DNA from: a virus
Lineage: Duplodnaviria; Caudoviricetes
DNA: 52,584 nucleotides
Strand: one strand, 5' to 3'
Virus record (IMG/VR): IMGVR_UViG_3300006802_016771
Span: 1-52,584 of that record
Shown: positions 3,073 to 50,892 of the stretch, piece by piece
Position numbering within the stretch: position 1 is the stretch's first letter
Layout of the letters: every line of letters starts with the position of its first letter
Made by a program: the position numbers and the translations under genes
The notes under the pieces: model-generated
Told to the model about the DNA's origin: nothing
What the model saw: the letters and a program-made list of their open reading frames with translations, nothing else
Databases searched by the model: none

Positions 3073-3247
3073 CCAATGAGAAATCTGCCTCGAAGTCTAC
3101 GACATCCTCATCAAAGTAATCATCAATAGCCGCATCAACGCATTGCAAGATGTCTACTTCCGTTAGGTCGCTCTCCTCTTCCCATCTATGGAAGAGACAC
3201 TTTAACTCATGGATGACTTGTTTTCTTGCTTCTGCTGCTTGACTCAC
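3044..3247 (-). CDS. small very acidic protein
   Basis: GTG start 14 nt after GTTGACA; D/E-rich tail DFEADFSLDDEEDDDAE. Confidence 0.7.
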   Translation of the reverse strand: MSQAAEARKQVIHELKCLFHRWEEESDLTEVDILQCVDAAIDDYFDEDVVDFEADFSLDDEEDDDAE

Positions 3248-3261
3248 AAAATAGACCGCTG

Positions 3262-3268
3262 TGTCAAC
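3262..3268 (-). promoter_or_regulatory. GTTGACA element, 14 nt before the start at 3247
   Basis: GTTGACA-cagcggtctatttt-GTG. Confidence 0.7.
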
Positions 3269-3331
3269 GATCGTAGAGCCAAGATACCAATATAAGAAAT
3301 GTAAATACGAGACAGAATAGAGTGATGAGGC

Positions 3332-3703
3332 TCACTTCTTAGCTCTAATGTGTGAGTGAATATATTCCCTCCAGCACATAGCAAATGTTTTAGCATCCTC
3401 CTCATTGTCCACTGTTACTGGATAATTTGGCCAAACAAAGTCGGGGTCAAACTCATAAAGAGCCTTTAATGTTAGTGGCGTGCCATCTTTTAGGAATATT
3501 TTATATTTACCTATTTCTGATGGATGAACATCCATCTTTGGCTCTACTTTTTGATAGTCAATTAATTCTCCTTTTTCTTTCATGGCATTCTGTAAATAGT
3601 TAAATGCATAGGTAGAAAGAAAATCATATTTAGCCTTTTGTGCCAGTATTTTATCGCGAACGGACCTACAGATTTTGTTACCAATCTGGTCATAAGTCTT
3701 CAT
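3332..3703 (-). CDS. hypothetical protein (start probably MKTYDQ at 3703)
   Basis: ORF track 3332..3757; the internal ATG gives a short overlap with the upstream gene. Confidence 0.6.
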   Translation of the reverse strand: MKTYDQIGNKICRSVRDKILAQKAKYDFLSTYAFNYLQNAMKEKGELIDYQKVEPKMDVHPSEIGKYKIFLKDGTPLTLKALYEFDPDFVWPNYPVTVDNEEDAKTFAMCWREYIHSHIRAKK

Positions 3704-3938
3704 TCTTATTAACAAATAAACATATCTTCGCGCCTTTTGGCAAGTCAGAAATATCAAATATATTTATCGTTAACTCTGGATACATATGCGATAGGTAGTT
3801 CTTTAGTGATTTCTTTCTATTATATATATTGTCTTCCTTATCAAATATCGTGACACTATGTTTCCTTGAACTAGAGAACTTTTGCAAAAGCGTCTCTAGC
3901 TCCCTATATCTTTCCAAGCTTATCGTACTCTCTAACAT
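3690..3938 (-). CDS. hypothetical protein
   Basis: Co-oriented ORF filling the gap after the methyltransferase. Confidence 0.55.
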   Translation of the reverse strand: MLESTISLERYRELETLLQKFSSSRKHSVTIFDKEDNIYNRKKSLKNYLSHMYPELTINIFDISDLPKGAKICLFVNKNEDL

Positions 3939-5661
3939 CTTCTTGGTGTAATACTAGTAATTCACTAAATGCTTTAGCTGCAGTCAACCAAACAACACCA
4001 TTGCCAAGCATTCTTAGTCGTTCAATTCTAGTTTCGTGTAACCCGCGGGTAACAACATCAGACTCTCCACCCAATCTGGGTTCAACTTCCTCGTCTTCTC
4101 TTGATTCGCTGCTTGACCGCAGAGTGTGTTCTCCTTCTCTATCCCCCTCTTCTTCGTATTCATCATCAGATTCGATGCATCCAGAGTTCTTGGAGTCGCC
4201 CAAGATTGTCCTTGGTGCTTCCCATGGGTATTGTGGTCTCCCTGGTCTTGCTGGCCATTTGATGACTGGGTGAGTTCCTTCAATATTGATTCTGTATTCT
4301 CCGTCAACTCTTCTGCTACTCGGGAAGCCTTCATCATATATTCTGGCGAGTGCAAGGCAGTGCTCTGTTTCACCGCAATTCTCAAGGGTTTGTGTAGGTT
4401 GATGCCCTCCTTCTCCTTCCTTGCCTTCCTCTTCTCCCAAGTTTCCATAGACTCCGTTAGGTGATCCGATACTATTGGTGTTGGCCATTTCTCCATCGCA
4501 TTTACAGCTTCTCCTAGCTTCGCGCCAAATACTTCCCCCGACCTCTCTCTCTTCATACGAAATCCTCCAGGGGTAATCTCCGCCGCATTGGGGGCATCGC
4601 CCGTGTCCGACGCTCTCGTCGTTGGCCATAGCTCTGGTATCACTTCCTCCCGCAAGTTCTTGCATCCCCCCTTCTTCTTCGCTTCCTCTAGTTTCTCCAC
4701 ACTCCGAGGTGGCAAAACATCCATCGTTGAGGGGGTAGCCCATTGTTTGTCGAATGCATCCTTCAATTGTTGATTGGCTTCTTTGCTCGCCTCCTTGTAA
4801 GCTTTGACCATCTCTGGGTCTATCTGCTCCCTCAAGTTGCTCGGCTTCTGCCTGTTCTTCCTGTGACCATTCGTAGCCTGTGCCTTCATCGCCTCGTAAC
4901 TCCGACTCGGTAAGTAATCCATTGTGTTGGGTGTTGCCCAGCTCTCCCCCATCCCCTTCTCCACATCTCTCAGTTGAGTCCTGTGCGCTTCCCTCGTCGG
5001 GTCTGCCGCTCCATTCATGTCCGAGACTTGCGGGGTCGGCCAAGTATCCCGTTGTAAGGGCTCTGAACTTGAGTTCATCAATATCGATCCATCCTTGATT
5101 GCCTCGCTTGAATTGATCCCAGGGGGCACTCCGAGGGTCTGATCTAAATGAGAGCGAAAAGATTCGCTTGCGGAGATGTGGCGCACCAACCTCGAACGCA
5201 GAGTATATTCCTCCCTTAACCATGAAACCATCCTCTGCCAAGTCGCTGACAACTGTGTCGAGTCCAAGCGAGACGTGCCCGTCGACGTTTTCTCCGAAGA
5301 ATGCTCTAGCATTACATCCATTAACAACTGCCCTGGTGTATCCCCACATTTTTCCACGCTTCCCCTCCAGTCCCGCTCTATTCCCTGCACTACTAAAGTC
5401 TTGGCATGGATATCCGGCAATGACGAGGTGTACTTTGTCTCGAAAGAGGTGCGCAGGGAATTTGGTAACATCCGTGAAAATAGGGGCTTCATCCATCTCA
5501 CCCCTTTGAATTTTTTGCGCCAAGAGTTCGACTGCATAGGCTTCGATCTCCACATAAGCGACGACTCGCAGGTTTGGTATAACTCTTCGCACTCCGAGGT
5601 CGAGACCTCCGTATCCGCTGAATAAGCTAATGCACGTAACTTCTTTGTCGTAATTATCCAC
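3904..5661 (-). CDS. C5 cytosine DNA methyltransferase, alpha polypeptide (motifs I-VIII and X)
   Basis: SLFSGYGG (I), AGYPCQDFS (IV, catalytic Cys), GENV (VI), PHLRKRIF (VIII), RLRMLGNGVV (X); likely GTG start at 5661 after AGGAGG. Confidence 0.9.
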   Translation of the reverse strand: MDNYDKEVTCISLFSGYGGLDLGVRRVIPNLRVVAYVEIEAYAVELLAQKIQRGEMDEAPIFTDVTKFPAHLFRDKVHLVIAGYPCQDFSSAGNRAGLEGKRGKMWGYTRAVVNGCNARAFFGENVDGHVSLGLDTVVSDLAEDGFMVKGGIYSAFEVGAPHLRKRIFSLSFRSDPRSAPWDQFKRGNQGWIDIDELKFRALTTGYLADPASLGHEWSGRPDEGSAQDSTERCGEGDGGELGNTQHNGLLTESELRGDEGTGYEWSQEEQAEAEQLEGADRPRDGQSLQGGEQRSQSTIEGCIRQTMGYPLNDGCFATSECGETRGSEEEGGMQELAGGSDTRAMANDESVGHGRCPQCGGDYPWRISYEEREVGGSIWREARRSCKCDGEMANTNSIGSPNGVYGNLGEEEGKEGEGGHQPTQTLENCGETEHCLALARIYDEGFPSSRRVDGEYRINIEGTHPVIKWPARPGRPQYPWEAPRTILGDSKNSGCIESDDEYEEEGDREGEHTLRSSSESREDEEVEPRLGGESDVVTRGLHETRIERLRMLGNGVVWLTAAKAFSELLVLHQEDVREYDKLGKI

Positions 5662-5663
5662 AT
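4014..5663 (-). CDS. overlapping alternative-frame protein, putative MTase beta polypeptide (W[PA]TP repeats plus motif IX)
   Basis: 549 stop-free codons overlapping nearly all of the MTase in a second frame; ATG after the same SD; six W[PA]T[PT] repeats; C-terminal LNPDWVESLMLLPAGYT. Confidence 0.75.
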   Translation of the reverse strand: MWIITTKKLRALAYSADTEVSTSECEELYQTCESSLMWRSKPMQSNSWRKKFKGVRWMKPLFSRMLPNSLRTSFETKYTSSLPDIHAKTLVVQGIERDWRGSVEKCGDTPGQLLMDVMLEHSSEKTSTGTSRLDSTQLSATWQRMVSWLREEYTLRSRLVRHISASESFRSHLDQTLGVPPGINSSEAIKDGSILMNSSSEPLQRDTWPTPQVSDMNGAADPTREAHRTQLRDVEKGMGESWATPNTMDYLPSRSYEAMKAQATNGHRKNRQKPSNLREQIDPEMVKAYKEASKEANQQLKDAFDKQWATPSTMDVLPPRSVEKLEEAKKKGGCKNLREEVIPELWPTTRASDTGDAPNAAEITPGGFRMKRERSGEVFGAKLGEAVNAMEKWPTPIVSDHLTESMETWEKRKARKEKEGINLHKPLRIAVKQSTALHSPEYMMKASRVAEELTENTESILKELTQSSNGQQDQGDHNTHGKHQGQSWATPRTLDASNLMMNTKKRGIEKENTLCGQAANQEKTRKLNPDWVESLMLLPAGYTKLELND

Positions 5664-5971
5664 TTCTCCTCCTTGAGTTGTAGTCTAAGTTTAGAATATT
5701 GAAACCCTTCAACAAAAAACAGTAATTCTATTGCTCCATCTTTGTCAGATATTGAAGCGGATATTGATGCAGGTGTTTCCCCAAATAATATTTTATCTAT
5801 ATCCCACCCCTTAGTTCTTGCCACCATTTTACACAATTCAAACATCCATTTATGAGCCTGTGGCAAAAAATTATGCCATGCTTTCTCTTTGGCTCTAAAC
5901 GCACATATCATGGGGATTAGTAGTCTTAATTCGGGCCCAGGGGCAGTGTTGTATTCTAAATCACAAATCAT
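5654..5971 (-). CDS. hypothetical protein
   Basis: Co-oriented ORF with short overlaps to both neighbours. Confidence 0.6.
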   Translation of the reverse strand: MICDLEYNTAPGPELRLLIPMICAFRAKEKAWHNFLPQAHKWMFELCKMVARTKGWDIDKILFGETPASISASISDKDGAIELLFFVEGFQYSKLRLQLKEEKCG

Positions 5972-6230
5972 TTTCTTTTATTTCTATTTCCTTTATATCC
6001 TTCAGGAAAATTATTCTATCATCACCATCTAAAACGCTCTTGTCAAAGATGCCATCACGGGAAATTGATAGAATATTACCCCTCAAACAATCATAAACTA
6101 CTAGCGTCTCAAAGTTTATGACTTTCTTAATCCAATCATTATTCCATTTTATTTTATCGCTATATACCCTCATAGAGTACACAGTACCATTGAGGTCTCC
6201 CATATAGTTTCCATTATTGAATAATCTCAT
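5961..6230 (-). CDS. hypothetical protein
   Basis: Co-oriented ORF. Confidence 0.55.
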   Translation of the reverse strand: MRLFNNGNYMGDLNGTVYSMRVYSDKIKWNNDWIKKVINFETLVVYDCLRGNILSISRDGIFDKSVLDGDDRIIFLKDIKEIEIKENDL

Positions 6231-6319
6231 ATCAAAGGGAGGTGGAAGAGAGAGAGGTAGGAGGAACCTCCCCCTCTTTTACCCCATATGCCAGAGGGTT
6301 CCACCAAATGTTATTGTAG

Positions 6320-6344
6320 GTAGGGGGGCTTAAGCCCTCCCTAC
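6320..6344. repeat. GC-rich palindrome in the intergenic region downstream of the primase-helicase
   Basis: gtaggggggctt|aagccctccctac, inverted repeat with one bulge centred on CTTAAG. Confidence 0.7.
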
Positions 6345-6389
6345 TACTAACAGGTAGACCCTTATCTATTATAAGCGTTTTGACTTGGG

Positions 6390-9845: not shown

Positions 9846-9848
9846 ATA

Positions 9849-18027: not shown

Positions 18028-18030
18028 GTT

Positions 18031-19683: not shown

Positions 19684-20038
19684 TAAAGTCGCTATGACCT
19701 TCGACTTTATCCCTTATGCGATCCAATTCTTTTTCAAGATACTTAATTCTTTCAAATTGTTGATAATCTGATGTGATTGGCTCATCTTGCTTTGCTACTA
19801 GGCTATCCAAGTCAGCCTTTGCTTGTTCTGCAAATTTTTCGATATGCATCATGCGAGCAGATAAGTCCCCTAACATAGTCCCTTCATGCTGAACTCTTCC
19901 TAATCCATTGTCTAGTTCATTTATTTTATTCCATATAACAGAATAGCCCCATACGCATGTGCCAACAATAGCGATAACCTTCGCCATGAATGCGAGGTTT
20001 GCTTTGACTTGGACATTATCTCCTACCTCAGTAGCCAT
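19673..20038 (-). CDS. N-terminal TM plus coiled-coil protein (i-spanin-like or other lysis protein)
   Basis: Start reassigned to MATEV (20038), 14 nt after GTTGACA; one TM then heptad-rich helix. Confidence 0.55.
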   Translation of the reverse strand: MATEVGDNVQVKANLAFMAKVIAIVGTCVWGYSVIWNKINELDNGLGRVQHEGTMLGDLSARMMHIEKFAEQAKADLDSLVAKQDEPITSDYQQFERIKYLEKELDRIRDKVEGHSDFIEQ

Positions 20039-20052
20039 GTGATAAGTGTTTT

Positions 20053-20059
20053 TGTCAAC
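20053..20059 (-). promoter_or_regulatory. GTTGACA element, 14 nt before the ATG at 20038
   Basis: GTTGACA-aaaacacttatcac-ATG. Confidence 0.7.
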
Positions 20060-32724: not shown

Positions 32725-33198
32725 TTACTTGCAACTTGGGGCACAAACTTGACCACCACTTCTTAGCCTGAAGTAAGACTCTGCAGTCAAATCAAGTTGG
32801 GCAAATTCATTATTCTGACGAATTACTTTCCAGCTAGTTACATTACATTGCAATGTAGTTCCATTGAGGAGATGAGACTCTATCTCTAATGACCAAGTCT
32901 TATCATTCTTACAATCAAGATATGTATTTAAGGCTGCACCAGTTTCAGCATACCCCACGATGTTCATGGTTATCTTTACTGGCCCCCGACGAACAGCACC
33001 CACGTTTCCGTCACTATCTAGTGCGGTAGCCTCAAATTCAGGGGTGTGCTCTTCTGTGAAGCTCTGAACTGTTAATTTAGTTACATCAGGTGTATAGCTT
33101 CTACCATTTCCATCATCAAATGCCCAAAGATAAGCATCGCATCCGCGTACGGAAGAGCTCCCCTGTTTTACATCATCTCCTGTAATTGTTTTACTCAT
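32725..33198 (-). CDS. tail tube-like protein 1
   Basis: ATALDSDGNVGA..NIVGY..NNEFAQLDLTA, homologous to the next gene. Confidence 0.6.
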   Translation of the reverse strand: MSKTITGDDVKQGSSSVRGCDAYLWAFDDGNGRSYTPDVTKLTVQSFTEEHTPEFEATALDSDGNVGAVRRGPVKITMNIVGYAETGAALNTYLDCKNDKTWSLEIESHLLNGTTLQCNVTSWKVIRQNNEFAQLDLTAESYFRLRSGGQVCAPSCK

Positions 33199-33212
33199 AC
33201 TATTGACATTGT

Positions 33213-33219
33213 TGTCAAC
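33213..33219 (-). promoter_or_regulatory. GTTGACA element, 14 nt before the ATG at 33198
   Basis: GTTGACA-acaatgtcaatagt-ATG; its TGA is the upstream stop codon; a second TTGACA on the plus strand (33203-33208) makes an inverted repeat. Confidence 0.7.
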
Positions 33220-33976: not shown

Positions 33977-34296
33977 GGAATAATGCCCTTCATTGGCCCT
34001 GAGCAATTAAGTGTAAACATATCTGATCCATCACGCTCAATGCTTTCAACGCGTAATGTTGCGTGGAGTGTGTATATTTTTGTACCCTTTTTAATACCAG
34101 CTAATTTAAATACATCTTTTGTGACATATAAAATCGCATCAGCTAGTTGCATCTTCCCCCCAGGTATTCTTTTATTAGAAACCTCAATAGGGTCATATAT
34201 GGCTATGTACTCTTCTCCATTTACCTCTATAGGTTCACCCATTTGATCCATCGCTGGTTTTATGGATAGATTCATACCCTCACTAAAAGTGCTCAT
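33973..34296 (-). CDS. head-tail joining/closure protein (gpFII-like)
   Basis: MGEPIEVNGEEYIAI..LRVESIERDG; first gene after the MCP. Confidence 0.65.
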   Translation of the reverse strand: MSTFSEGMNLSIKPAMDQMGEPIEVNGEEYIAIYDPIEVSNKRIPGGKMQLADAILYVTKDVFKLAGIKKGTKIYTLHATLRVESIERDGSDMFTLNCSGPMKGIIP

Positions 34297-34309
34297 ACTA
34301 TATTTGCCT

Positions 34310-34316
34310 TGTCAAT
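34310..34316 (-). promoter_or_regulatory. ATTGACA element, 13 nt before the ATG at 34296
   Basis: ATTGACA-aggcaaatatagt-ATG, directly after the MCP terminator. Confidence 0.65.
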
Positions 34317-34325
34317 GTAACCAAT

Positions 34326-34354
34326 AAAAAAGCCCCCGAATACTCAGAGGCTTC
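34326..34354 (-). terminator. Rho-independent terminator after the major capsid gene
   Basis: Minus strand aaGCCTCTGAgtatTCGGGGGCtttttt: hairpin with G-U pairs followed by a U tract. Confidence 0.8.
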
Positions 34355-34383
34355 TTTACGATTGTTGTTACCCGCGGGTTACA

Positions 34384-35778: not shown

Positions 35779-36393
35779 TTAGTTTTCAAGAACGCCCTGG
35801 CGAATAAGCCAATCGCGATGCCCTTGTGGATTAGAGGATACGGCTGCGCGAATAGCATCAAGTGGGCTCTCATTATTATTTGAGCTTTGTTGTACGCTAA
35901 ACTCAAAAGAGCCTTCGCCCTCGTTGTTAAAGAAAAGATTTTCAATAGCGGAGGAAGGAAGAGGCTCAACTGCACTAAGCTCGATTTGCTCTTTTAGTTC
36001 CTCGTTCTCAAGCAAGAGCTCCTCGTTTCTTTTAGTGAGTTCTTCAAACTTCATCTCAAGATCACGGACGAGTTTTTCGTCTTGCAAATCTTGCTCAGCT
36101 TTAAGAGCTCCCTCGGCTTTAGCTTCTAAGTAGGTGAGAGCGTCATCAATGGAAGAATACTCAACTGGCTCAGCCACTTCAGCTTCTTCTTCATCGTAGC
36201 TATCTTCATAATCATAATCTTCTTCAGAATCTTCATAATCAGCTTCATCGGAGGCTTCATAATCATCGTCAGAAAATTGATCAGCGATAGCTTCCTCAAG
36301 ATCACCCCGAAAGCCTTCAAGACCTTCAAGACGCTCATTGATACTTTGGAGCAACTCCTCCACCTTGTTTTCAGATACTTCTGGATCGTTCAT
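35779..36393 (-). CDS. nested in-frame scaffolding protein (204 aa, MNDPEV...)
   Basis: Internal ATG right after the protease domain, with its own GTTGACA 14 nt upstream; analogous to lambda Nu3 within gene C. Confidence 0.7.
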   Translation of the reverse strand: MNDPEVSENKVEELLQSINERLEGLEGFRGDLEEAIADQFSDDDYEASDEADYEDSEEDYDYEDSYDEEEAEVAEPVEYSSIDDALTYLEAKAEGALKAEQDLQDEKLVRDLEMKFEELTKRNEELLLENEELKEQIELSAVEPLPSSAIENLFFNNEGEGSFEFSVQQSSNNNESPLDAIRAAVSSNPQGHRDWLIRQGVLEN

Positions 36394-36888
36394 ATTATGA
36401 TTGTTGTTGTCAACTTTTGTTTCAAACATTCCATCGGGATTAGCCGCTGGGTCAGCGACCAAATCAACAGAAATTATGCGCTTACAGCGCGCGTAAATTT
36501 TTCCACCCTCACCTGCTTCTTTGTCTCCCTGGAATGCAACAGAGAGTCCAATTTGACCAGGCATGGTAGATATTTGCTCCATAGTTTGATTGTAGTCCCT
36601 ATGATGCTTAAGAAGATTTAAATCACCCTTTAGCTTATTACCTTGTATGGAGAAGTTATTAATATAACCAAAAACAGCTTCCACACCAGAGCGGTGATTA
36701 AGTTTAGCCTTAATACCAGGATTAGGAGTTCCATCTAAAGATTCTTTCAATTGCTCCAATGTTTTTTGGTCAACGATCAACCCATGACCTCTAGCATCAC
36801 CCATAGTGATAAGTGATACTCCTCGGATTACACCTGACTCTTCATCAATCCTGCCATCTATGGCTTCAAATAAACTTAGGTCTTCCAT
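35779..36888 (-). CDS. prohead protease fused to scaffold
   Basis: GVSLITMGDARGH, LNH, IGLSVAF, SVDLVADPAANPDGMF protease core, then an acidic coiled coil. Confidence 0.8.
   Translation of the reverse strand: MEDLSLFEAIDGRIDEESGVIRGVSLITMGDARGHGLIVDQKTLEQLKESLDGTPNPGIKAKLNHRSGVEAVFGYINNFSIQGNKLKGDLNLLKHHRDYNQTMEQISTMPGQIGLSVAFQGDKEAGEGGKIYARCKRIISVDLVADPAANPDGMFETKVDNNNHNMNDPEVSENKVEELLQSINERLEGLEGFRGDLEEAIADQFSDDDYEASDEADYEDSEEDYDYEDSYDEEEAEVAEPVEYSSIDDALTYLEAKAEGALKAEQDLQDEKLVRDLEMKFEELTKRNEELLLENEELKEQIELSAVEPLPSSAIENLFFNNEGEGSFEFSVQQSSNNNESPLDAIRAAVSSNPQGHRDWLIRQGVLEN
36408..36414 (-). promoter_or_regulatory. GTTGACA element inside the protease gene, 14 nt before the scaffold ATG
   Basis: GTTGACA-acaacaatcataat-ATG. 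Confidence 0.7.
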
Positions 36889-36902
36889 TGATTAGTTTCC
36901 CT

Positions 36903-36909
36903 TGTCAAC
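36903..36909 (-). promoter_or_regulatory. GTTGACA element, 14 nt before the protease ATG
   Basis: GTTGACA-agggaaactaatca-ATG. Confidence 0.7.
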
Positions 36910-36910
36910 C

Positions 36911-37726: not shown

Positions 37727-38887
37727 TTAATTATTTTGATATCTTGGTGGTTTAGTCCTGCCATCAGGTTTCCTTACGACATGAATACCCTTGGGCTTAC
37801 CCTTAATTCTATTGTAAGCTTTTTTGTAAGCATCTCTATTTTGAGTTATTCGCTTTAATCTCCTGCCAAGAAGGGCAGATAACCCAGCAGTGCCAACGGC
37901 TCCCATAATTGCAGTCCCAAGGAATTTATCGCGTGATGATTTTCTTTCATGCCAATGCTTTTTCCTGCGATTTCTTCTATCTCCTTTGTGATGAACTCGC
38001 ACGGATTGGCTAGTAGGACGAGACATACGCCAGCCTTTACGCTTGGCTTCATCTGTTAAAATTTGAGGCCCTTCCATGAGTTCAATCATTTTATCTTCCT
38101 CAATGTGCCCTTCTGAAAATAATCTTTTAATTAATGCGCGACCCCTCTTGGAGTTAGCTAAAGCTGCTATACCTAAACCACCGCCAGCGATTGCTGCTGA
38201 AGTTGCATTATCTTTAAATGCCTGTTTTTCATAGAAGCGCTTCCTTCTTTTATTACGCCTCTCTCCTTTTATCATATCCTGAATGTCACGAATTGCGTCA
38301 ACTCCCTTTCTCGCTGTGCGAACTTGACGCTTCACCTTATTATGGCTCTGCCTCATAGCTCTTAGCTTTTCCGCACTGGAGTCGTCAAGCTCGGGCCTAG
38401 ATATAGCAAATGCTATTGTTTTAGCTTTATTTTTTTCAAATATTCTTTGCTGAATAGAGTTTTCAAATATGAAACGCTTTCCACCAGGCAATTTATTTAA
38501 AGTTTTTCTCCACTTAGACCATTTACTTGATCGTTTTTTATTTAAATACTCTTTAGCCCTTTTTACTCGCTTTGCTTTATTTTTACGAACTGCTTTTGCA
38601 CGAGAAGACCTATTTAGGGGGGATTCATTAATAGCCGCCTGGGCATCCCTCGCCGTCTTTGTGGCTTGATTTGCCGCACGTGTCGTGGCTTTAGTTGCTT
38701 TAACAACTTGCTCAGTGGGTCTTTGTCTAAGCATCCTTGTTGCCGTAAGCAAACCCGCAGCAGTACCTACACCTGCTAAAGCAGTGTTAATTCTACGATG
38801 CTGCTCAGCTGGCTTATTAGTCAATACCGTATCAACGGGATGCTTAATAGCGTGCTCAATCTTTCCTTCTTTTTTTATCGATGCCAT
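37727..38887 (-). CDS. modular basic Gly-zipper protein
   Basis: Three Gly/Ala hydrophobic segments each followed by K/R tracts; linkers FIFE..IAFA and LFSE..IELM; SD GGAGG. Confidence 0.75.
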   Translation of the reverse strand: MASIKKEGKIEHAIKHPVDTVLTNKPAEQHRRINTALAGVGTAAGLLTATRMLRQRPTEQVVKATKATTRAANQATKTARDAQAAINESPLNRSSRAKAVRKNKAKRVKRAKEYLNKKRSSKWSKWRKTLNKLPGGKRFIFENSIQQRIFEKNKAKTIAFAISRPELDDSSAEKLRAMRQSHNKVKRQVRTARKGVDAIRDIQDMIKGERRNKRRKRFYEKQAFKDNATSAAIAGGGLGIAALANSKRGRALIKRLFSEGHIEEDKMIELMEGPQILTDEAKRKGWRMSRPTSQSVRVHHKGDRRNRRKKHWHERKSSRDKFLGTAIMGAVGTAGLSALLGRRLKRITQNRDAYKKAYNRIKGKPKGIHVVRKPDGRTKPPRYQNN

Positions 38888-40370
38888 ATCCTATACCTCC
38901 ACCTATTGCTAGTGGTGTCAAAAGTTTCATCAATGCTCTACTACCTACGTGTCTCCTAAAACCTTTCGGTGCCTTATCGGAATACAATGGGGCTTTACCA
39001 CTTCTCCATGATTTTTTTGTACCCCTAAGTTTAGCTCTTTTTAGTTGCTTATGCCTTAACTTAACATCCCTCAGGTAGTTACCCGCGAGTAACCCACCAG
39101 CTGCTGCACCCGTTGCGCTTCCTATAACTGTAGCCTTCTTTTTCTCCTCTAAGTTTATCCTAGGGTAACCATCATCAGGCTTTCTAACCTTATTCATTAT
39201 ATCTTTAAATACTTTCAAATCAGGGTACTGGCCTTCTGGCAACTCATCATCTTTGGGTAAAAGTTTTTTTGCTCTCTTTATAGCACCCCTCTTTGCTGCT
39301 TGACCTGCTATTGTTGCCTCTTCTTTACCAGTCCCTCTTGCCCTACTTTGTACATTCTTAACCTTACCTTGGCTATCAAGCACTTTTTTCGTGTTACGCC
39401 TCTTGGCCCCAGGATCAAATTTATGGCCTCCGGTCCTTTTCCCGGCCTTCAATCTGGCTGATCCCTGGTCAGGTATCTTGTTTCTGCGATTAATAGAGAC
39501 CTGAGTGTCTCCTGTTTCGCCAATAGGTCTGGTTTTCCCAGGAGCCTTGACCTGGTTAGCCTGGTTGGCCGCGGCTTTTTTCTGGTCTATTTTTCGCACA
39601 GCTTGCGATCTAGCATTAGCCCTGGATATGCCCTGGTTCTTTTTCTTGGATAAAACTTTCTCTGTTTTCTTATTTATCTCAGCTTCTTTTACATTACGGG
39701 ATCGCGTTTTCTTTCTTTGCCGCTCAGATGTGGATGCTCTTTTATGTGCCTGCTGGGGACTCTCCCCAGGCTTAGCCAATCTTTTCATCTTCCTTTTCTC
39801 GCTCCCTGTTAAGGCGCCCCAATTCTTTTTTTCCCAGTCTGCTGACTTCTTGCCTTCTACGAAATCTTTTAGCTCCTTCTGTACCCCAGGGTTTGTCTTT
39901 GCTATTCTTTTACGCTCCTTGTTGATCCTCTTTTGACGCAATTCGGTTTCTTTCTTTAACTCTTGATTTACATAGTCAGCATCTCTTTCTTTGCCTAGCT
40001 TAGCCAAATCCTTAGATTCAGATTCATAGCGATTGGCTAATTTCTTCATGCCTTTATTGGAAGCCCTTGGATGATTTAAGTCATCCTTGAGCCTACTGGG
40101 TGCTTGATTACTCCTCACTAAAGAATTTACTCTTCTTCTGGTTTCTGGAGTTGGTTTCTTGGCGTCACCATAACCCACACCTGCTGCTGCTCCTGCTGCA
40201 CCTCCAGCTCCCGCGGCTTTAGTCATGGATACTTTCGTTTTCTTGCCATAAAACTTATCAGTATCAAAAGAACCCAAGCGATTCTTTGAACCACCTTTTT
40301 GGAATTTCTTACGACCCGCCTGCCTATATTTAACTGCGGCTCGTTTTAAAAATCTACTTATTGCCCGCAT
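38856..40370 (-). CDS. large basic Gly-zipper protein directly after the portal
   Basis: 504 aa, very K/R-rich; AGAGGAAGAAAGVG, GSATGAAAGGLLAG, LAIGGGIGYG. Confidence 0.75.
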   Translation of the reverse strand: MRAISRFLKRAAVKYRQAGRKKFQKGGSKNRLGSFDTDKFYGKKTKVSMTKAAGAGGAAGAAAGVGYGDAKKPTPETRRRVNSLVRSNQAPSRLKDDLNHPRASNKGMKKLANRYESESKDLAKLGKERDADYVNQELKKETELRQKRINKERKRIAKTNPGVQKELKDFVEGKKSADWEKKNWGALTGSEKRKMKRLAKPGESPQQAHKRASTSERQRKKTRSRNVKEAEINKKTEKVLSKKKNQGISRANARSQAVRKIDQKKAAANQANQVKAPGKTRPIGETGDTQVSINRRNKIPDQGSARLKAGKRTGGHKFDPGAKRRNTKKVLDSQGKVKNVQSRARGTGKEEATIAGQAAKRGAIKRAKKLLPKDDELPEGQYPDLKVFKDIMNKVRKPDDGYPRINLEEKKKATVIGSATGAAAGGLLAGNYLRDVKLRHKQLKRAKLRGTKKSWRSGKAPLYSDKAPKGFRRHVGSRALMKLLTPLAIGGGIGYGIDKKRRKD

Positions 40371-41886: not shown

Positions 41887-42164
41887 CCTTCCATATTGCG
41901 ATTGAAGGTTTCTCCGTCAAGACCATAGCCACCAAAATCTGCGTAAGTGTCCTCATTGTAAGATTTACCAGACTTCTCTCTTTTTATCTCTGCTATAGCT
42001 CTAAGCCTCTCTTCAACTGAAGTAATGCTTCGCTGATAACTTTTGCCCCCAACAGATTGCGCTAAATATAGATTGCTCGCCTCTTTTTTTAGGCTATCAC
42101 TCTCCATTTTAAGTTCTTGACTGTTGTAGTCGCGATAAATAATTTTCCAATTAGCTACGCTCAT
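41883..42164 (-). CDS. gpW-like head completion protein (start reassigned to MSVANW)
   Basis: Small gene immediately before the portal; QSVGGKSYQR; GTTGACA 15 nt upstream. Confidence 0.65.
   Translation of the reverse strand: MSVANWKIIYRDYNSQELKMESDSLKKEASNLYLAQSVGGKSYQRSITSVEERLRAIAEIKREKSGKSYNEDTYADFGGYGLDGETFNRNMEG
42117..42145 (+). promoter_or_regulatory. sigma70-like promoter for the plus-strand HTH operon
   Basis: TTGACT-N17-TAATTT ending 33 nt before the ATG at 42179. Confidence 0.55.
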
Positions 42165-42178
42165 ATAGCAAAGAAACC

Positions 42179-42592
42179 ATGTCAACAATAAGAGAAGCAT
42201 TCGTAGACTTTGATTATGACTCCATAGACTTTGGAGACAAGCCACCTAGTGATGAAATCATTGATGATATGCCTGAATTACTTCGGCAATATGTTGATGA
42301 AAGGGTTAGAGCAGAAGTCCAAGATGCACTCACCCGTGTAATTGCCCTTATTTATGACTCCAACAACTACAGACTAAAACTAGCGACCATAGTTTGCGCT
42401 TTTGGGTTGCCTTTGTTTTTAGGTAAGTCCATGAAAGATATAGCCGCAATACATGGGGTTACAAGACAAGCTCTTTCTAAATCAGTAAAACTATTTCAAA
42501 AAAACTTTAACCTACCTCCCGTGAGGGGTCAAAAATCATTAAAGGCTTGCGAAAAATATAGAGAAATACAGATAAAACGTAATAAAAAATAA
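42179..42592 (+). CDS. HTH DNA-binding protein, sigma70 region 4-like
   Basis: FGLPLFLGKSMKDIAAIHGVTRQALSKSVK matches the region-4-type HTH pattern. Confidence 0.7.
   Translation: MSTIREAFVDFDYDSIDFGDKPPSDEIIDDMPELLRQYVDERVRAEVQDALTRVIALIYDSNNYRLKLATIVCAFGLPLFLGKSMKDIAAIHGVTRQALSKSVKLFQKNFNLPPVRGQKSLKACEKYREIQIKRNKK
42180..42186 (-). promoter_or_regulatory. GTTGACA element, 15 nt before the ATG at 42164; overlaps the HTH gene start codon
   Basis: Plus strand ATGTCAAC is both the HTH start and the reverse complement of GTTGACAT. Confidence 0.7.
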
Positions 42593-42593
42593 A

Positions 42594-43085
42594 ATGGAAT
42601 TAGAAGTAACATTAGCACCTGATCAAACAGCAGAACGAATTTTAGAATGCCATAAGCAAGGATTAAACCAAATGGTTGGATCGCTAGTGCATTTCGCCGA
42701 AGCGGGGTTGCATTTGAAAAGAATACGTTCGCAGGTTGATGACTTTGGTAAATGGATTAGTGAGAATTTAGTATTTAGCAAAAAAACCGCATATCAATAT
42801 ATTAAGCTAAATGAAAAAGTTGAGGCTGGTCTTGACCTAGAGAGTGGCAAGTACACATCTATTAGGCAATGCTTAGGAATTGACCATGATGGAGAAAAGT
42901 CAACTTACAGAGAAACTGCTGATAAACGATTTGAGAGCATCCCTGGTCTTTCATCAAAAATTCAACACACATATAAAGGTGCTGTTAGGGCAAAGCCTTT
43001 GCATAATTGGAGTGCTGATGAGAAAAGGGCACTAGCTACTAGCTTGCTGCCAATTCTTGATATCTACAATGAGTTAAACGACTAA
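42594..43085 (+). CDS. DUF3102-like protein
   Basis: EAGLHLKRIR..FGKWISENLVFSKKTAYQYIKL pattern. Confidence 0.65.
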   Translation: MELEVTLAPDQTAERILECHKQGLNQMVGSLVHFAEAGLHLKRIRSQVDDFGKWISENLVFSKKTAYQYIKLNEKVEAGLDLESGKYTSIRQCLGIDHDGEKSTYRETADKRFESIPGLSSKIQHTYKGAVRAKPLHNWSADEKRALATSLLPILDIYNELND

Positions 43086-45802: not shown

Positions 45803-47463
45803 TATACCCTTATGCGCGGATCAATTACAACTTTCCCATGGGCGCGCACCATGTCGCAAAAATGAATGTGCTCACTTACTGAGAAATTCCCTGATCCATC
45901 TAGGTCACTTTCCCAATGGCACACCTCAAGAACTTTTGTCCTTATACAAACAAATCCTGCAAAAGCGCTACGGACTTCAAAAGGTTCGGTATGATGACCT
46001 GGTGGTCTAATTTCATCACCCTCTAGCGGTCTAAATGCAAATGTGTCATAGTACCCATTAGTCCAAACAGGAGTTCCGAAAGGTGTTACCATCGCAATGT
46101 CCTCGTTATCCTCAAGGACAGAAATCATATTACTCATAATTTCTAGATCAAAAATTACCTCACTATCAATAATGAAAGAGTAGTCTGATTGAGTCCAATC
46201 TTTGCATAGGTTTTTCATTTTATTCCTATACATAGATAAGTCTTTTATTCTCCTTGGGTCATTAGTGGATGGCCAGTGTGTATTCCCTAGCTTTTCGCAA
46301 GAGAATTTACCATTAGAGTGCTTAAAAAAATCTTCTAACAAATTAGGAGTGGTATCGCTACTATCATTCTCGAAAAAATAGTAATTAACTGGACCTTTAT
46401 ACTTATGCTCCATCACCTTTAATCCACCCAATGTTTGACCAATAGACTCCTCGTTGTTTCGGAAACAGCCAAATACATTCACCCTAGAACCGCTCGTAAC
46501 TTTCGAGTGAACGGATAAACCAGAAACACCGATAGATTTTAATAAGTTCCTCATCCTGTCTGCGGTTGATATTTCCCTTATCTCCTCTAAGCCCGCTACG
46601 ATTTTACTCTGCACATGACTAGAGCAAATATTCGCCATGCCTAAATCCATTCTAGCTTGGCTATTTTGATTGGCAGTAATTATAGCACCAAAATTCTCTC
46701 TTATATCTTGAGCAAAAGGTGTAGGGTGAGCAATGCAAGGAATGCCAGCTCGTATTGCCTGCACTATTGTGCTTTCGCTCCTAAACATGGGAGCTATAAC
46801 TAAATCTAGCTCACTAACCTCAAATGGCGTAAATGTTATATACTTATGGTATTCCTCATCTATTTTTTCTAAGATATCAGACACAGTTAATGTATTGACG
46901 TGCTGCCTATAGTTCGTGGCATTTATAAATAACTCAAACTTAGGTAAATGCTTAACTAGTGATTTTATTATTATTTCATATCTTATTTTAAAAAAAGTGC
47001 CCCAAGGTATCCCGACCCTGCAACTATTTTTATATAACACCCAATTAGGCACTTTTAAATTATGGTTATCCTCAACTTCCCCAAGTACCCTATTTTTACT
47101 ATATGGAGGTCCAACTCTACGAATGGTTATTGGTTTCTTCCCCCTTCCTAGTAGTAAATTTTTAGTAAAACTATCTGCAGCGATATAGTTGCAGTCTGGT
47201 AAATCCTCAATTCCAGAAATACTATTATCGCACCACAGGAACCAATCTTTTGTAGCAAATTCCTCTACACCTTTTATCGCGGGTGACCACTGAACTATAA
47301 TATCACCCTTAAGTCCCTTAATTGTCTTTCTTGTCCAATCAATAGTTTCAGGATCAGTTGTATCATAAATGCTAATGGGTTTTATGAAATTATAATCCAA
47401 TACATTCTGGGCAATTAATTTTTGATCAGGATTTGTATCGCAGTAAATGTAGTTGAGCTTCAT
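45790..47463 (-). CDS. two-domain glycosyltransferase (GT-B-like fragment plus GT-A/Anp1-like domain)
   Basis: QAIRAGIPCIA; FFENDSSDTT, YRNK, IIDSEV, YYDTFAFR, SAFAG, SEHIHFC. Confidence 0.75.
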   Translation of the reverse strand: MKLNYIYCDTNPDQKLIAQNVLDYNFIKPISIYDTTDPETIDWTRKTIKGLKGDIIVQWSPAIKGVEEFATKDWFLWCDNSISGIEDLPDCNYIAADSFTKNLLLGRGKKPITIRRVGPPYSKNRVLGEVEDNHNLKVPNWVLYKNSCRVGIPWGTFFKIRYEIIIKSLVKHLPKFELFINATNYRQHVNTLTVSDILEKIDEEYHKYITFTPFEVSELDLVIAPMFRSESTIVQAIRAGIPCIAHPTPFAQDIRENFGAIITANQNSQARMDLGMANICSSHVQSKIVAGLEEIREISTADRMRNLLKSIGVSGLSVHSKVTSGSRVNVFGCFRNNEESIGQTLGGLKVMEHKYKGPVNYYFFENDSSDTTPNLLEDFFKHSNGKFSCEKLGNTHWPSTNDPRRIKDLSMYRNKMKNLCKDWTQSDYSFIIDSEVIFDLEIMSNMISVLEDNEDIAMVTPFGTPVWTNGYYDTFAFRPLEGDEIRPPGHHTEPFEVRSAFAGFVCIRTKVLEVCHWESDLDGSGNFSVSEHIHFCDMVRAHGKVVIDPRIRVYWKK

Positions 47464-49187
47464 CGTACACCAATCATTTCAGTTACTAGAGCTGCCACTA
47501 ATATCATGCATTCACAATCCCAAAAGTGATTATCTTTGCGAGGTTTATTTACCCACTTATATGTAATCTTTCCGTAATTATCTATAATTTCCTCCCTATG
47601 CTCCGCTGACATTTGATTGATATAATCTCTTGTTATGTTTTCTGGCAACTGCCAACTAGGGCCTATACCTTTTTTATACTCAGCCAAAAGGTCTTTTATC
47701 GCTGGGTTGGAATACACGAAAAGTCTTACGGGTCTAACTTGACCTTGACTTACAGTTCCCATTGCTGGGTCTACTAATGTATCTTTCCATGGTTGCCGTA
47801 TTCCATCAACCATGAAGTATTGGAAATCATCACCCTTCATTGGCTTCCATGCATAACCAGATTTAGTAACCTCATTATAGACCGTTGTGGCTAAATAACC
47901 ACTATCTATAACAACATCATCAGAATCTACGCCAAGTTCGTGTATCTTCTCTCGTAGGGAAGAAAAATCAGACACTTTGCCATAATCATACAACCTAGAG
48001 GCTCCTGCTTTACCAAATTGCCTACAAACATAATACAAGCAATCTTTCTGCACATCTGCAGCTAAGAATTTTCGCTCCCCCTCGGGCCAACTATCTAGAA
48101 GCTTATAACTCCCCTTGCGATCCTCAGACCATGAAGAAACATCACCATACTTTAACCTATCTTCCCATGGTTGCCCTAAGCTTTCCGTTATAAATGTTTT
48201 TAATGGCATAGGATCGCCCCAAGAAAGAGCTTTTTTAGCATTTATAAATTCCTCAACCAACTCCCTCCATCGCACCCATTGTGGGAGTAATGCATTCCAG
48301 GTAAAACTTCGTCTTGATGTGGGGGCACTTGGGTTCTTCGCGATCCATTTGCCCGTATTCGTAAGTCTTCTTCTTTCCGCGGGAGTGTCTCTTGTTTCAT
48401 ATCCGCAGTGCGGACATTCAACTCTTATTGTGTCTGCTAGGGCATCAAAATTGTACAAGTCAGGCTTAGTAATCTCATTTGTATCCCACTTCATGTAGTC
48501 CCATATCAGTTCATGATATTCATTGCATTTAGGGCAATTAATATGCCATGATCTCTGATCTCCACGCAGGAACTCTTGATGGACAGTGTCATGCTCTAAA
48601 TCTGGGGTTGAAATAATAACCTGCCTAGCATTCCAAAATGTTCGTGTTCTTTTTAAAACTGTAGGCAAAGCGCCTGGGGGCCAGTTTCTAACCTCATCCA
48701 ATAATAACCACCGCCTAGGTTTTGATTGTAATTTTGAAGGTGCATTAGACCCAACGATCTCTAGCGTCATGTGAGGAAAAAACACTTCCTTACTCTTCAG
48801 TAATTCACGACTACTCGGGAGTAAGCTTCGGACCAATGGACAAGACTTGAGGGAAGGCATCATACGCTCTTTAGCGAATTTTAGTGCCTCCTCTTCGTTT
48901 GATGTCACCCACATACATGGTCCTGGGTCTTCTGCTATTAGCCAACATAGACAAGCCATCATCGTCTCTGTCTTAGCACTCTGCGCAGAGCACATGATGG
49001 ATAGAGTTCTTACTCTATTATCGGCAAAAACTTCCATGAACTCGCGAACCCATGGAGAGTTTGCCGACTTCCATTTACCAGGAAATGGCGAGACTGAAAC
49101 AATAAAATTATCTTCAGCCCACTGCCATGGTGGTCTATTATCGGCAGGCTTCCAAGATTCTTGAGCTACCCGCTCAACTAAATTCAC
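47460..49187 (-). CDS. terL: terminase large subunit, lambda GpA family
   Basis: Walker A CSAQSAKTE, Walker B LLDEV, ISTP, CPKC..CPHC zinc ribbon, ADVQ, IDSG, NHFWDC. Confidence 0.95.
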   Translation of the reverse strand: MNLVERVAQESWKPADNRPPWQWAEDNFIVSVSPFPGKWKSANSPWVREFMEVFADNRVRTLSIMCSAQSAKTETMMACLCWLIAEDPGPCMWVTSNEEEALKFAKERMMPSLKSCPLVRSLLPSSRELLKSKEVFFPHMTLEIVGSNAPSKLQSKPRRWLLLDEVRNWPPGALPTVLKRTRTFWNARQVIISTPDLEHDTVHQEFLRGDQRSWHINCPKCNEYHELIWDYMKWDTNEITKPDLYNFDALADTIRVECPHCGYETRDTPAERRRLTNTGKWIAKNPSAPTSRRSFTWNALLPQWVRWRELVEEFINAKKALSWGDPMPLKTFITESLGQPWEDRLKYGDVSSWSEDRKGSYKLLDSWPEGERKFLAADVQKDCLYYVCRQFGKAGASRLYDYGKVSDFSSLREKIHELGVDSDDVVIDSGYLATTVYNEVTKSGYAWKPMKGDDFQYFMVDGIRQPWKDTLVDPAMGTVSQGQVRPVRLFVYSNPAIKDLLAEYKKGIGPSWQLPENITRDYINQMSAEHREEIIDNYGKITYKWVNKPRKDNHFWDCECMILVAALVTEMIGVR

Positions 49188-49399: not shown

Positions 49400-49427
49400 A
49401 AATTAGTAAAATCATTAATAAAGTCAA
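49400..49427 (-). promoter_or_regulatory. sigma70-like promoter giving a leaderless transcript into terL
   Basis: TTGACT-N16-TAATTT then 6 nt to the ATG; same hexamers as the promoter at 42117. Confidence 0.45.
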
Positions 49428-50047
49428 CCCTTCCTGCGTGCGAGAATGGCTAATATTTTCTTCTTAGCCAACTGCATATTCGCTTTGGCTTTTCTTTTAG
49501 TTCTAGCGGAAGTTGTGTTTTTCGCGTCTTTCTGCTGTTTCCTAGCTATGTCTCCATAGCCTTTTCCGTCAGAAGCATACATAAATTCCATCAAGTCCTC
49601 TACACTAGGCTCTTCATATTTGAAGATTTTCTTACGAAGGTTTTTTAGCATTCTACCGGTCCGACGTGCTTGACCTTTTACATAAGGATTTACTTTACCC
49701 TTAATTTCAGAAGCTTTCTTTTTAATTTTTTGAGCACTTCCAGGAACTACGGCATTCGCTGCGCCTGAGGCTACTCCTCCGCCTACCCTTCTTGTCGCAT
49801 TGTACCTATTCTTGGCACCCTGGGCATACTTGCTTATCTTGTCGCGATTTTGATAGGCAACAGCACCAGCACCTAGCCCTGCTAAAACGCCTGTTCCGCG
49901 ACCAACAGTCTCTCTAACAGACCCTAATACTCCGCCAACATTTTTATGATCTTCCTCTTCGGCGCGAAATTCAATGTTTTCACCCCTAAGTCTAATAACT
50001 TGGTCTAGTTTTTCATCTAAAGCGATAATGCGTTTTGCGTCATTCAT
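49424..50047 (-). CDS. modular basic Gly-zipper protein
   Basis: GTGVLAGLGAGAVAY; linkers ENIEFRA and VEDLMEFMYA; K/R-rich modules. Confidence 0.75.
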   Translation of the reverse strand: MNDAKRIIALDEKLDQVIRLRGENIEFRAEEEDHKNVGGVLGSVRETVGRGTGVLAGLGAGAVAYQNRDKISKYAQGAKNRYNATRRVGGGVASGAANAVVPGSAQKIKKKASEIKGKVNPYVKGQARRTGRMLKNLRKKIFKYEEPSVEDLMEFMYASDGKGYGDIARKQQKDAKNTTSARTKRKAKANMQLAKKKILAILARRKG

Positions 50048-50061
50048 ACTATTTATTGCGT

Positions 50062-50068
50062 TGTCAAC
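50062..50068 (-). promoter_or_regulatory. GTTGACA element, 14 nt before the ATG at 50047
   Basis: GTTGACA-acgcaataaatagt-ATG. Confidence 0.7.
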
Positions 50069-50870
50069 TAAATCTCTTTCTTGTGAAAGCCGCTAATAAA
50101 CTCTTGCGGAGTAAACTTTTAGCACCACGCCTATTAACACCATGGTTTTTCATGGCCGTTTTTATTGCTTTTTCTTTCTGATTTACATCCAAATCATCAT
50201 ATTTTGCCTTTCTAGCGCGTGTTTTTTGGTTACTAGAAATATTTTTTGCCTCCTTAGCTTTAGCGTTTTGGCGCTGCTTTTGAGTAAAATCACCTCTCTC
50301 GTACTTACCCTTCGTGGGTCTTTGATACTTTTTAGGGTCATCTACCTGGGCGGTTACAATTCCTTGCTTCTTGGCGAAATTACCAGAAGTCTTTATGCTC
50401 ATTTTAGCATTATTCCTCAAGTTTTTGCCGCGCACTTTTGCAGACTCTGCTTCCTGTTGAGTAAGCATTGCAATTTTTGCATTCTCTTTATCAATGCTCT
50501 TGCGAATTGCCGATTTCTTTTTCGTTAACTTATCAGGTAGTACATTAATCTTTTCTAGAGTACCACTTTTTGTTTTTCTATAAATACCATCTTTAATAAC
50601 ACCTATCTTTTTACCCGCGGGTGACTTGGGCGTATTATTACCCTTACCTAAATTACTTGGCAAGGTTTTGGCTCGCCTTCTTCTATCAAACCTAGATCGC
50701 TCTTCATCCTTGAGGGCAAATAGCATCAAAAGTTTCTCATTTCTTTCCGCAAACTCTTTTATTTCTTTCTTAAGCAAGCACTTGCCTGCTTTTGAACAAG
50801 CAACCTTAGACTTACAGGCACTACAAAGTGAGAATGTTGGATTATTGCCGAACGGTTTTATGTCTTTCAC
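50064..50870 (-). CDS. basic protein with 4-Cys motif (start reassigned to GTG 50870)
   Basis: CSACKSKVACSKAGKCL; linker IKEFAERNEKLLMLFA; very K-rich. Confidence 0.7.
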   Translation of the reverse strand: MKDIKPFGNNPTFSLCSACKSKVACSKAGKCLLKKEIKEFAERNEKLLMLFALKDEERSRFDRRRRAKTLPSNLGKGNNTPKSPAGKKIGVIKDGIYRKTKSGTLEKINVLPDKLTKKKSAIRKSIDKENAKIAMLTQQEAESAKVRGKNLRNNAKMSIKTSGNFAKKQGIVTAQVDDPKKYQRPTKGKYERGDFTQKQRQNAKAKEAKNISSNQKTRARKAKYDDLDVNQKEKAIKTAMKNHGVNRRGAKSLLRKSLLAAFTRKRFS

Positions 50871-50885
50871 ATAAAAGCACGACCT

Positions 50886-50892
50886 TGTCAAC
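50886..50892 (-). promoter_or_regulatory. GTTGACA element, 15 nt before the GTG at 50870
   Basis: GTTGACA-aggtcgtgcttttat-GTG. Confidence 0.6.

Follow-up and report, generated by a model that had tools for sequence, protein, structure and literature searches.

A TTGACA element at a fixed short distance from gene starts in an uncultured lake phage and its relatives

The virus record IMGVR_UViG_3300006802_016771 (Caudoviricetes), a linear stretch of 52,584 bases referred to here as the window, raises the question of why the word TTGACA, the -35 box of sigma-70 promoters, stands only 13-15 nucleotides (nt) before the start codons of nine putative late genes. These nine minus-strand sites had been reported in an earlier note made from the letters alone, and a check of the sequence confirmed the position and spacer of each (Table 1). 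Here the position, orientation and conservation of the element, called the box below, are established together with its extended signature, and we infer that it is read on DNA and fixes where transcripts begin. The reading that we favour, with moderate confidence, is that G-TTGACA is the recognition element of a clade-specific, probably late-class compact promoter that starts RNA on the start codon.

Position, orientation and signature of the box

TTGACA occurs 22 times in the window, 15 times on the minus strand and 7 times on the plus strand, compared with 30.8 +/- 5.5 in shuffled sequences, so the word is positioned rather than over-represented. Nine of the 15 copies on the coding strand are start-linked, that is, located 13-15 nt before an ATG or GTG opening at least 60 codons, versus none of the seven on the other strand; the linkage seen in the earlier note is non-random and strand-specific. 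Among all 4096 hexamers TTGACA ranks first for start linkage (binomial p = 6.8e-11), and the second and third, TGACAA and GTTGAC, both overlap it. Random placement of 15 sites never reached nine linked copies in 200,000 trials (maximum 6). At 5/9 sites the start codon is the most upstream ATG or GTG of its open reading frame (ORF), and the linkage is thus independent of any motif-guided choice of starts. The other six coding-strand copies lie 28 to 219 nt from the next ORF-opening start. One of these, at 38916-38921, belongs to the box family as a leadered variant carrying a Shine-Dalgarno (SD) site, and the hexamer is exactly TTGACA at all ten sites. On the plus strand, TTGACA-N7-TATAAT followed by G (52166-52186) has the same compact layout, with a TG step at spacer positions 13/14, and is directed to the right end of the record.

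Related viral loci were collected by a portal search (15 loci) and by a search with p137 (23 loci), a 137-amino-acid (aa) helix-turn-helix (HTH) protein of the window, the contigs being partly shared between the two sets. They include clade A, with a portal identity of 66-81%, and clade B, with a portal identity of 50% and a 60-kilobase (kb) record (G5). The same spacing, which the earlier note proposed to look for in related phages, is present in the clade A records and loci. In clade A the box is kept at orthologous genes while the spacer sequence has diverged, also in relatives with 50-55% guanine plus cytosine (G+C). In all, the box recurs at orthologous genes in 13 related viral sequences. 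TTGACA is again the top start-linked hexamer in a 64.7-kb record judged 97% complete (G1; 8/18, p = 6e-8) and in a 49.7-kb record (G2; 10/14, p = 5e-13), and the box is present in 7/7 further clade A loci.

Pooling the window, G1, G2 and ten loci gives 58 non-identical sites. The hexamer is preceded by G in 54/58, the spacing is 14 nt in 40, 15 in 9, 13 in 6 and 16 in 3, and the start codons comprise 50 ATG and 8 GTG. The base at -1 is T in 47/58, A in 6, C in 5 and never G, while T is found at this position in 49/158 other gene starts. The full signature is accordingly G-TTGACA, 13-16 nt, T at -1 and then the initial A or G of the start codon. At positions -6 to -1 C is scarce and the sequence weakly TATART-like, and positions -14 to -7 and those upstream of -21 are nearly without information. 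GGAG, GAGG or AGGA is found in 10/58 spacers.

Coding conservation begins exactly at the box-linked ATG, for example M-S-V-A-N-W at 42164, with synonymous changes and with alternation of GTG and ATG among relatives. The ATG is thus the true start codon and necessarily lies on the mRNA. The earlier note had used the box to move three gene starts, of which 42164 and 20038 are upheld by conservation beginning at those ATGs in relatives and 50870 is consistent by position only. In G2 the orthologue of the site at 20036..20059 retains both the box and the M A T E V G start.

Genes led by the box do not overlap the gene upstream; the gaps are 16-23 nt. The upstream stop immediately precedes the box, except at 33215, where the TGA of the box doubles as the stop codon of the upstream ORF. 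Elsewhere the box stands behind the hairpin and T-run that follow the capsid gene (34310), opens a divergent head-gene unit (42180) or precedes an internal ATG (36393). Most other late genes are joined by stop/start overlaps (ATGA and similar). As the earlier note had it, SD sites are missing from the spacers (GGAG/GAGG in 0/9 in the window), GGAGG-type sites precede replication genes (5663, 8384, 9111, 9391 and 11607), and the copy at 34310 follows a terminator-like hairpin and T-run after the capsid gene. The copy described as lying inside the protease gene before the scaffold start does precede an in-frame ATG (36393) of ORF 35779-36888, a candidate start of a scaffold-like C-terminal protein. 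This ORF occupies the place expected for the prohead protease/scaffold gene and has no family match; neither Pfam nor PHROGs names it a protease. The label 'late' is plausible by position, with the box heading head, tail and downstream blocks and absent from the replication/recombination block at 4014-18327 (minus strand), which its strong GGAGG sites set apart from the remaining genome. A hairpin between the box and the coding region is not general, since only site 33213 has a partner (TGTCAA). A small upstream ORF beginning at the TTG of the box, or a use of its TGA, was rejected because the frames are inconsistent among sites.

No hexamer is enriched at a fixed distance from starts in the clade B record. 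GTTGACA is still oriented there, with 8 copies on the coding strand vs 1 on the other, 14 to 70 nt from the next start. The clade B locus L019 (4140-4178, 13005-13044 and 18620-18645) has unlinked genes with long, C/A-rich, G-poor leaders without SD sites, one of which is (ACTC)x6.

The level at which the box acts

A sigma-70 promoter of normal spacing was rejected, in agreement with the earlier note, because no TATAAT-like -10 hexamer is located 16-18 bp downstream of TTGACA at the nine start-linked sites; that stretch falls inside the ORF and shows coding bias only. The start codon follows the hexamer by 13-16 nt, vs about 30 nt from the -35 box to the transcript start in sigma-70 promoters, where the start lies 5-8 nt past the -10 box, and as coding conservation begins at the box-linked ATG, RNA must start there or upstream of it. 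The box therefore cannot be a sigma-70 -35/-10 promoter. Consensus promoter scans list none of the nine sites and find fewer promoter-like sites in the window than in shuffles (39 vs 49.5; 36 vs 57.4). A -10 box of the leaderless type (TANNNT) is absent from -12 to -7, where 40 sites with N14 hold 0.02-0.19 bits per position. Sigma-54, extracytoplasmic function-type and leaderless TANNNT geometries were also set aside, since neither the sequence upstream of the hexamer nor the stretch at -12 to -7 shows a conserved element.

Copies that are not start-linked help to tell what the distance is measured to. Across all genomes, 11 GTTGACA copies have no start of a long ORF at N13-16, and 9/11 of them keep T followed by A or G at spacer positions 14/15 or 15/16, the chance expectation being about 0.23 per site; among these nine, two are mutual orthologues and two precede the ATG of a short ORF. 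The T-purine step is kept in leadered and unlinked copies, which means that the conserved distance runs from the hexamer to this step and not to the AUG. At 38916 and in its orthologues in L064 and L068 the TG step is followed by GGAGG and, 8 nt on, by ATG; RNA from this site would begin at GGAGG, 13 nt before ATG 38887. Because the box feeds a GGAGG leader here, it is no substitute for a ribosome site, and a translation signal would be redundant. Bacterial transcript starts usually have a pyrimidine at -1 and a purine at +1.

TTGACA is also scarce on the untranscribed strand, with 7, 8, 4 and 8 copies observed in four genomes vs about 12.9, 18.6, 11.0 and 20.8 expected, and so is GTTGACA, with 0, 1, 0 and 1 copies vs 1.6, 3.6, 1.4 and 3.9 expected. 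This depletion makes sense for a signal read on DNA. The ratio of GTTGACA on the coding strand to the other strand is 8/0, 11/1, 9/0 and 8/1, an asymmetry of orientation of the kind known from stoperators. The terminator-like hairpin immediately upstream of the copy at 34310 is counted in favour of a promoter. Transfer RNA genes, at which box-led transcription would have shown itself, number none in the window and none in 15 related loci.

RNA evidence comes from assembled contigs of four freshwater metatranscriptome runs, at depth 2-20, in which true ends, strand and level are not resolvable. They cover 32718-33188, 34386-36457 and 49489-50034. Cover is high on the scaffold, cement and capsid genes (34386-36457), on ORF 32725-33198 and on ORF 49424-50047, and only this unevenness makes carried-over DNA an unlikely source. 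The contig at 32718-33188 ends 10 nt inside its ORF (start A 33198), contigs from two studies end at 36374 and one contig at 36385, 8-19 nt inside the internal start (A 36393), and the contig at 49737-50034 ends 13 nt inside ORF 49424-50047 (start A 50047). Upstream, cover is zero at 33264-33927 in 4/4 runs and at 36584-37247 in 3/4 runs. Parts of the window free of contigs were not counted as silent, save for these two stretches directly upstream of covered box-led genes, which give a weak hint. RNA contigs that begin just inside three box-led genes are a hint in favour of a promoter.

In the mechanism proposed, RNA polymerase would begin 14-16 bp beyond the hexamer, on a purine that follows a T. 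For this clade that purine would be the A or G of the start codon, making each box-led block a leaderless mRNA. The first cistron of such a block would need no SD site, and the following cistrons would be read via stop/start overlap. The reader of the box is, at a guess, the host RNA polymerase (probably verrucomicrobial) redirected by a phage factor such as p137. It is rather unlikely, taken as a whole, that a p137-like free HTH protein, perhaps derived from sigma region 4, reads the hexamer at -21 to -15 and lets host polymerase start without a -10 element throughout the verrucomicrobial phage group, with a leaderless late transcriptome. If true, recognition based on p137 would be a mode not described for bacterial polymerases.

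Several observations weigh against a compact promoter. No polymerase or sigma factor is known to us that works from a hexamer at -21 to -15 and dispenses with a -10 element at -12 to -7. Nor can the weak TATAAT-like bias at -6 to -1 serve as the -10 box of this mRNA, since the transcript would then begin within the ORF. RNA polymerase and sigma families are represented by none of the 61 window proteins and none of the 71 proteins of G1 (97% complete), although many of the proteins searched belong to no family at all, among them ORFs of 549 and 547 aa. The 549-aa ORF was considered as a hidden polymerase, and Atlas and relaxed Pfam searches gave nothing usable. Clade B retains the HTH protein (41% identity) without a fixed spacing of the box, and the box is found at gene starts in 0/13 distant terminase relatives from bacterial assemblies. 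The coarse resolution of the RNA contigs counts here as well, and two of them cross box sites (36307-36457 and 36823-37036), so read-through RNA exists.

These last contigs also suit the second reading offered in the earlier note, an SD-independent signal at the RNA level, with GUUGACA serving to recruit or retain either the ribosome or an RNA-binding factor of the phage 14 nt ahead of the AUG of uncoupled cistrons. The box does head precisely the late cistrons that are free of overlap with the stop codon upstream, most others being stop/start overlapped; GGAG and GAGG are missing from the spacers, the spacing to the AUG is tight in clade A, and the nearest counterpart in print, the Start-Associated Sequences of cluster K mycobacteriophages, has been given a translational interpretation (PMC3203893). 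For a pairing of GUUGACA with 16S rRNA, also considered, we know of no convincing complement. Such a signal is nevertheless improbable. Clade B and 11 other copies lack a fixed AUG distance and yet keep the T-purine step, one copy precedes a normal GGAGG site, and there is no RNA-level reason to avoid TTGACA on the untranscribed strand. T at -1, and never G, is the usual context of a transcription start, and RNA cover drops upstream of three sites. Of the two readings in the earlier note, the phage-specific leaderless promoter is thus the one favoured, by the missing -10 box, the T-purine step, the strand avoidance and the RNA contigs, and the same results disfavour the translation signal.

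The asymmetry of the sites could alternatively belong to a stoperator-like operator array, in which p137 binds GTTGACA near gene starts and blocks or times late transcription while promoter activity lies elsewhere. Single orientation relative to transcription and location in short intergenic spaces recall the described repressor sites of mycobacteriophage L5 (PMC9283540). The ATG of the HTH gene overlaps a copy of the box, suggesting autoregulation, and KorA-type and immunity-repressor HTHs are among the weakest-level PDB matches of p137 (E about 1, not significant). A fixed 14-nt distance to a T-purine step would serve no purpose in an operator, however, neither the window nor the relative judged 97% complete showed an integrase or a lysogeny module, RNA cover begins at box sites, and no other promoter-like signal precedes the box-led genes; we regard this array as more improbable still. 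Least probable, and very unlikely, is a processing site: an endoribonuclease of host or phage would cleave the late polycistronic RNA at GUUGACA or downstream of it, and the segments beyond the cut would be stable and have short leaders. The contig ends and the difference in cover between the two sides of the three sites would look alike in that case. Cleavage leaves unexplained the depletion on the untranscribed strand, the T-purine step 14-15 nt downstream and the copy heading the divergent unit, upstream of which the RNA would run antisense to two genes; hairpins do not accompany the box sites.

A compact promoter would have partial counterparts in known phages. The Thermus phages Lalka27a and phiYS40 have many late promoters across their structural genes; their transcripts mostly begin with the A or G of the initiator codon, and the host polymerase is presumed to be redirected by a factor of the phage (bioRxiv 10.64898/2026.04.20.719267). 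The dispersal in structural genes is alike, and a start on the initiator codon would be as well. The Thermus promoters have a TANNNT/TAGGGT -10 box 6 bp before the start and a conserved C at -25, in contrast to a -35-type hexamer at -21 to -15 and no -10 box here. The late promoter of AR9 is AACA-(6N)-TA/G, with the last base as the transcript start (PMC5312081). Late promoters of AR9 and phiKZ resemble the box in having a short upstream word, a fixed gap, a T and a purine, here the putative start; they differ in being read by phage-encoded multisubunit polymerases, in the AR9 leaders of 26-491 nt and in word and gap, and no polymerase gene was found here among the proteins of the window and G1.

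Start-Associated Sequences are a conserved, asymmetric word found in one orientation before many start codons and kept across the subclusters of cluster K (PMC3203893). They share with the box the position of an asymmetric conserved word just before start codons. As described there, they are 13 bp long (GGGATAGGAGCCC), contain the SD core, lie 3-7 bp from the start and precede non-structural genes, unlike the box in word, distance and gene class. The stoperator 13-mer contains TGTCAA. Cluster A stoperators (the L5 repressor sites) comprise more than 20 asymmetric sites in short intergenic spaces, with an orientation tied to the direction of transcription (PMC9283540). This single orientation of asymmetric sites is shared with the box, and the differences are that stoperators act as blocks to elongation in lysogens and stand at no set distance from start codons.

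The literature searched, which took in few subscription journals, gave no description of TTGACA boxes fused to start codons or of leaderless transcription in Verrucomicrobia. If the box is a promoter, it would be a transcription start signal with a geometry outside the known polymerase and sigma classes, and leaderless mRNAs would be the source of most late proteins in this phage group, within a phylum (Verrucomicrobiota) that has hardly been studied for its transcription and translation signals. For uncultured phages the box is also of use in correcting gene starts and marking out transcription units, and the 7-bp word and the 137-aa HTH protein form a small testable pair for biochemistry.

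The divergent HTH protein and the host

The genes for p137 and for a second plus-strand protein, p163, lie beside the head genes in every relative including clade B (41% and 31% identity). The p137 family is small, with 54 database clusters, all from this phage group. In clade A the ATG of p137 (42179 in the window) forms part of the box on the opposite strand (ATGTCAAC), and the divergent start codons (minus ATG 42164 and plus ATG 42179) are 15 bp apart, placing each upstream region inside the other gene. TTGACT-N17-TAATTT at 42117-42145 (plus strand) may be a promoter of the plus-strand gene pair. In G1 (L052, 1618-5361, minus strand) the HTH and DUF3102-like genes share their strand and unit with the large terminase gene, all of them divergent from the head genes; this unit is therefore not simply 'early regulatory'.

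The HTH of p137 is located at aa 79-108, with weak Pfam HTH matches (E = 0.007-0.02). Its AlphaFold model has a mean predicted local distance difference test score (pLDDT) of 59.7, and 70-82 in the HTH part. The top Foldseek rows are mostly sigma-A region 4 chains, none of them significant (E 0.17-1), and the best VIA-align Z is 4.5, mixed with other HTH folds. A PDB profile search gave nothing significant, the weakest-level matches including those named above, and one source labels a 71%-identical homologue 'YlxM (UPF0122)'. From these model comparisons, a sigma-region-4-like reader of a -35-type word is a lead for p137. No fold match was found for p163, and kinship between p137 and p163 was rejected, a profile comparison finding the two proteins unrelated.

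A terminase profile retrieved 13 loci in bacterial assemblies with 39-48% identity, of which 9/13 are verrucomicrobial (Akkermansia muciniphila, Verrucomicrobiales, Verrucomicrobiia, Verrucomicrobiota and Pedosphaera); the other four are three bacteria without a finer name and one 1.7-kb contig binned as Hyphomicrobiales. Judged from these matches, the host is probably a member of Verrucomicrobiota. DNA of the phage is present in freshwater, estuary and marine metagenome runs.

The cultured phage P8625 of a verrucomicrobial host (L084) has TTGACA exactly 30 nt before four annotated ATGs (5412, 10736, 15558 and 22406). In 3/4 of these a TATnnG hexamer lies 17 nt after TTGACA and 7 nt before the ATG, and other P8625 leaders are CA-rich and SD-less, resembling the clade B leaders. 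By their sequence these sites seem to be promoters of ordinary geometry placed for leaderless mRNAs in phages of that phylum. Promoters are not mentioned in the P8625 genome paper (PMC4642752). The box has the same TTGACA in sense orientation upstream of gene starts as P8625 and canonical sigma-70 promoters, but its hexamer lies 16 bp nearer to the start, too near for a 16-18 bp spacer and a -10 box to fit in between.

Genome and gene content

The record has a G+C of 40.6% and a CheckV completeness of 79%, and the minus strand of the window carries almost all genes. Family scans of the window proteins recovered a lambda-like morphogenesis gene set (Table 1) and numerous glycosyl- and sulfotransferases. 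No Rfam family was found in the window. A close cultured relative was not found (no megablast match, terminase identity of at most 27%, no match of the capsid protein), nor were prophage relatives in a portal profile search.

Table 1. Box sites and other features of the window
Feature	Position	Strand	Remark
Site 50886, GTTGACA-N15-GTG	50868..50892	-	opens 268-aa ORF after small terminase; orthologous sites alternate GTG/ATG in relatives
Site 50062, GTTGACA-N14-ATG	50045..50068	-	opens 207-aa ORF 49424-50047
Site 42180, GTTGACA-N15-ATG	42162..42186	-	opens 93-aa ORF preceding portal gene; conserved in all clade A relatives
Tenth site, TTGACA, TG step at spacer positions 15/16, then GGAGG, ATG 38887	38885..38921	-	orthologues in G2, L064/L068
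Site 36903, GTTGACA-N14-ATG	36886..36909	-	opens 369-aa ORF 35779-36888
Site 36408, GTTGACA-N14-ATG, in-frame internal	36391..36414	-	inside ORF 35779-36888; conserved in G1, G2, L072-L074
Hairpin + T-run, intrinsic-terminator-like	34325..34356	-	after capsid gene, immediately upstream of next box; same order in G2 at 11557
Site 34310, ATTGACA-N13-ATG	34294..34316	-	opens 107-aa ORF 33973-34296
Site 33213, GTTGACA-N14-ATG	33196..33219	-	opens 157-aa ORF 32725-33198
Site 20053, GTTGACA-N14-ATG	20036..20059	-	opens 121-aa ORF 19673-20038, downstream of 2043-aa fibre-like gene
Site 3262, GTTGACA-N14-GTG	3245..3268	-	opens 67-aa ORF 3044-3247
p137, 137-aa HTH protein	42179..42592	+	divergent from head genes; candidate box reader
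p163, 163-aa DUF3102-like protein	42594..43085	+	putatively co-transcribed with HTH gene; Pfam DUF3102 E = 0.001, below family cut-off
Small terminase	50894-51454		family scan
Large terminase, GpA-type	47460-49187		family scan
Portal, lambda-family	40354-41886		family scan
Cement/decoration protein	35413-35766		family scan
Major head protein	34384-35400		family scan
Tape measure	27912-31673		family scan
Fibre-like protein, 2043 aa	20061-26192		family scan
Replication/recombination block: primase/helicase, RuvC-like, SSB-like, exonuclease, RecT-like	~6390-11607		family scan

The nearest proteins to the primase/helicase of the replication block are from Streptococcus prophages, with 33-36% identity, and the sequence suggests that the replication/recombination block may be a module of different ancestry.

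An unannotated 44-codon ORF at 37590-37724 (minus strand), Gln-rich and with an Arg/Gly-rich tail, occupies what looked like a gap between ORFs 37727-38887 and 37332-37589; its stop codon and the ATG that follows overlap (TAAATG). It lies under RNA contigs from two runs, one of which, 37561-37702, is flanked on both sides by adapter sequence. A structured small RNA at 37561-37702 was rejected, the fold having a z-score of -0.2 vs shuffles and the stretch being the 44-codon ORF.

The final 330 bases (52250-52584) are far richer in G+C than the rest and packed with short words like GCGTACGCG and GTGCGC. Given the lambda-type terminase, this could be a cos/packaging region, or it could be an artefact of the record end.

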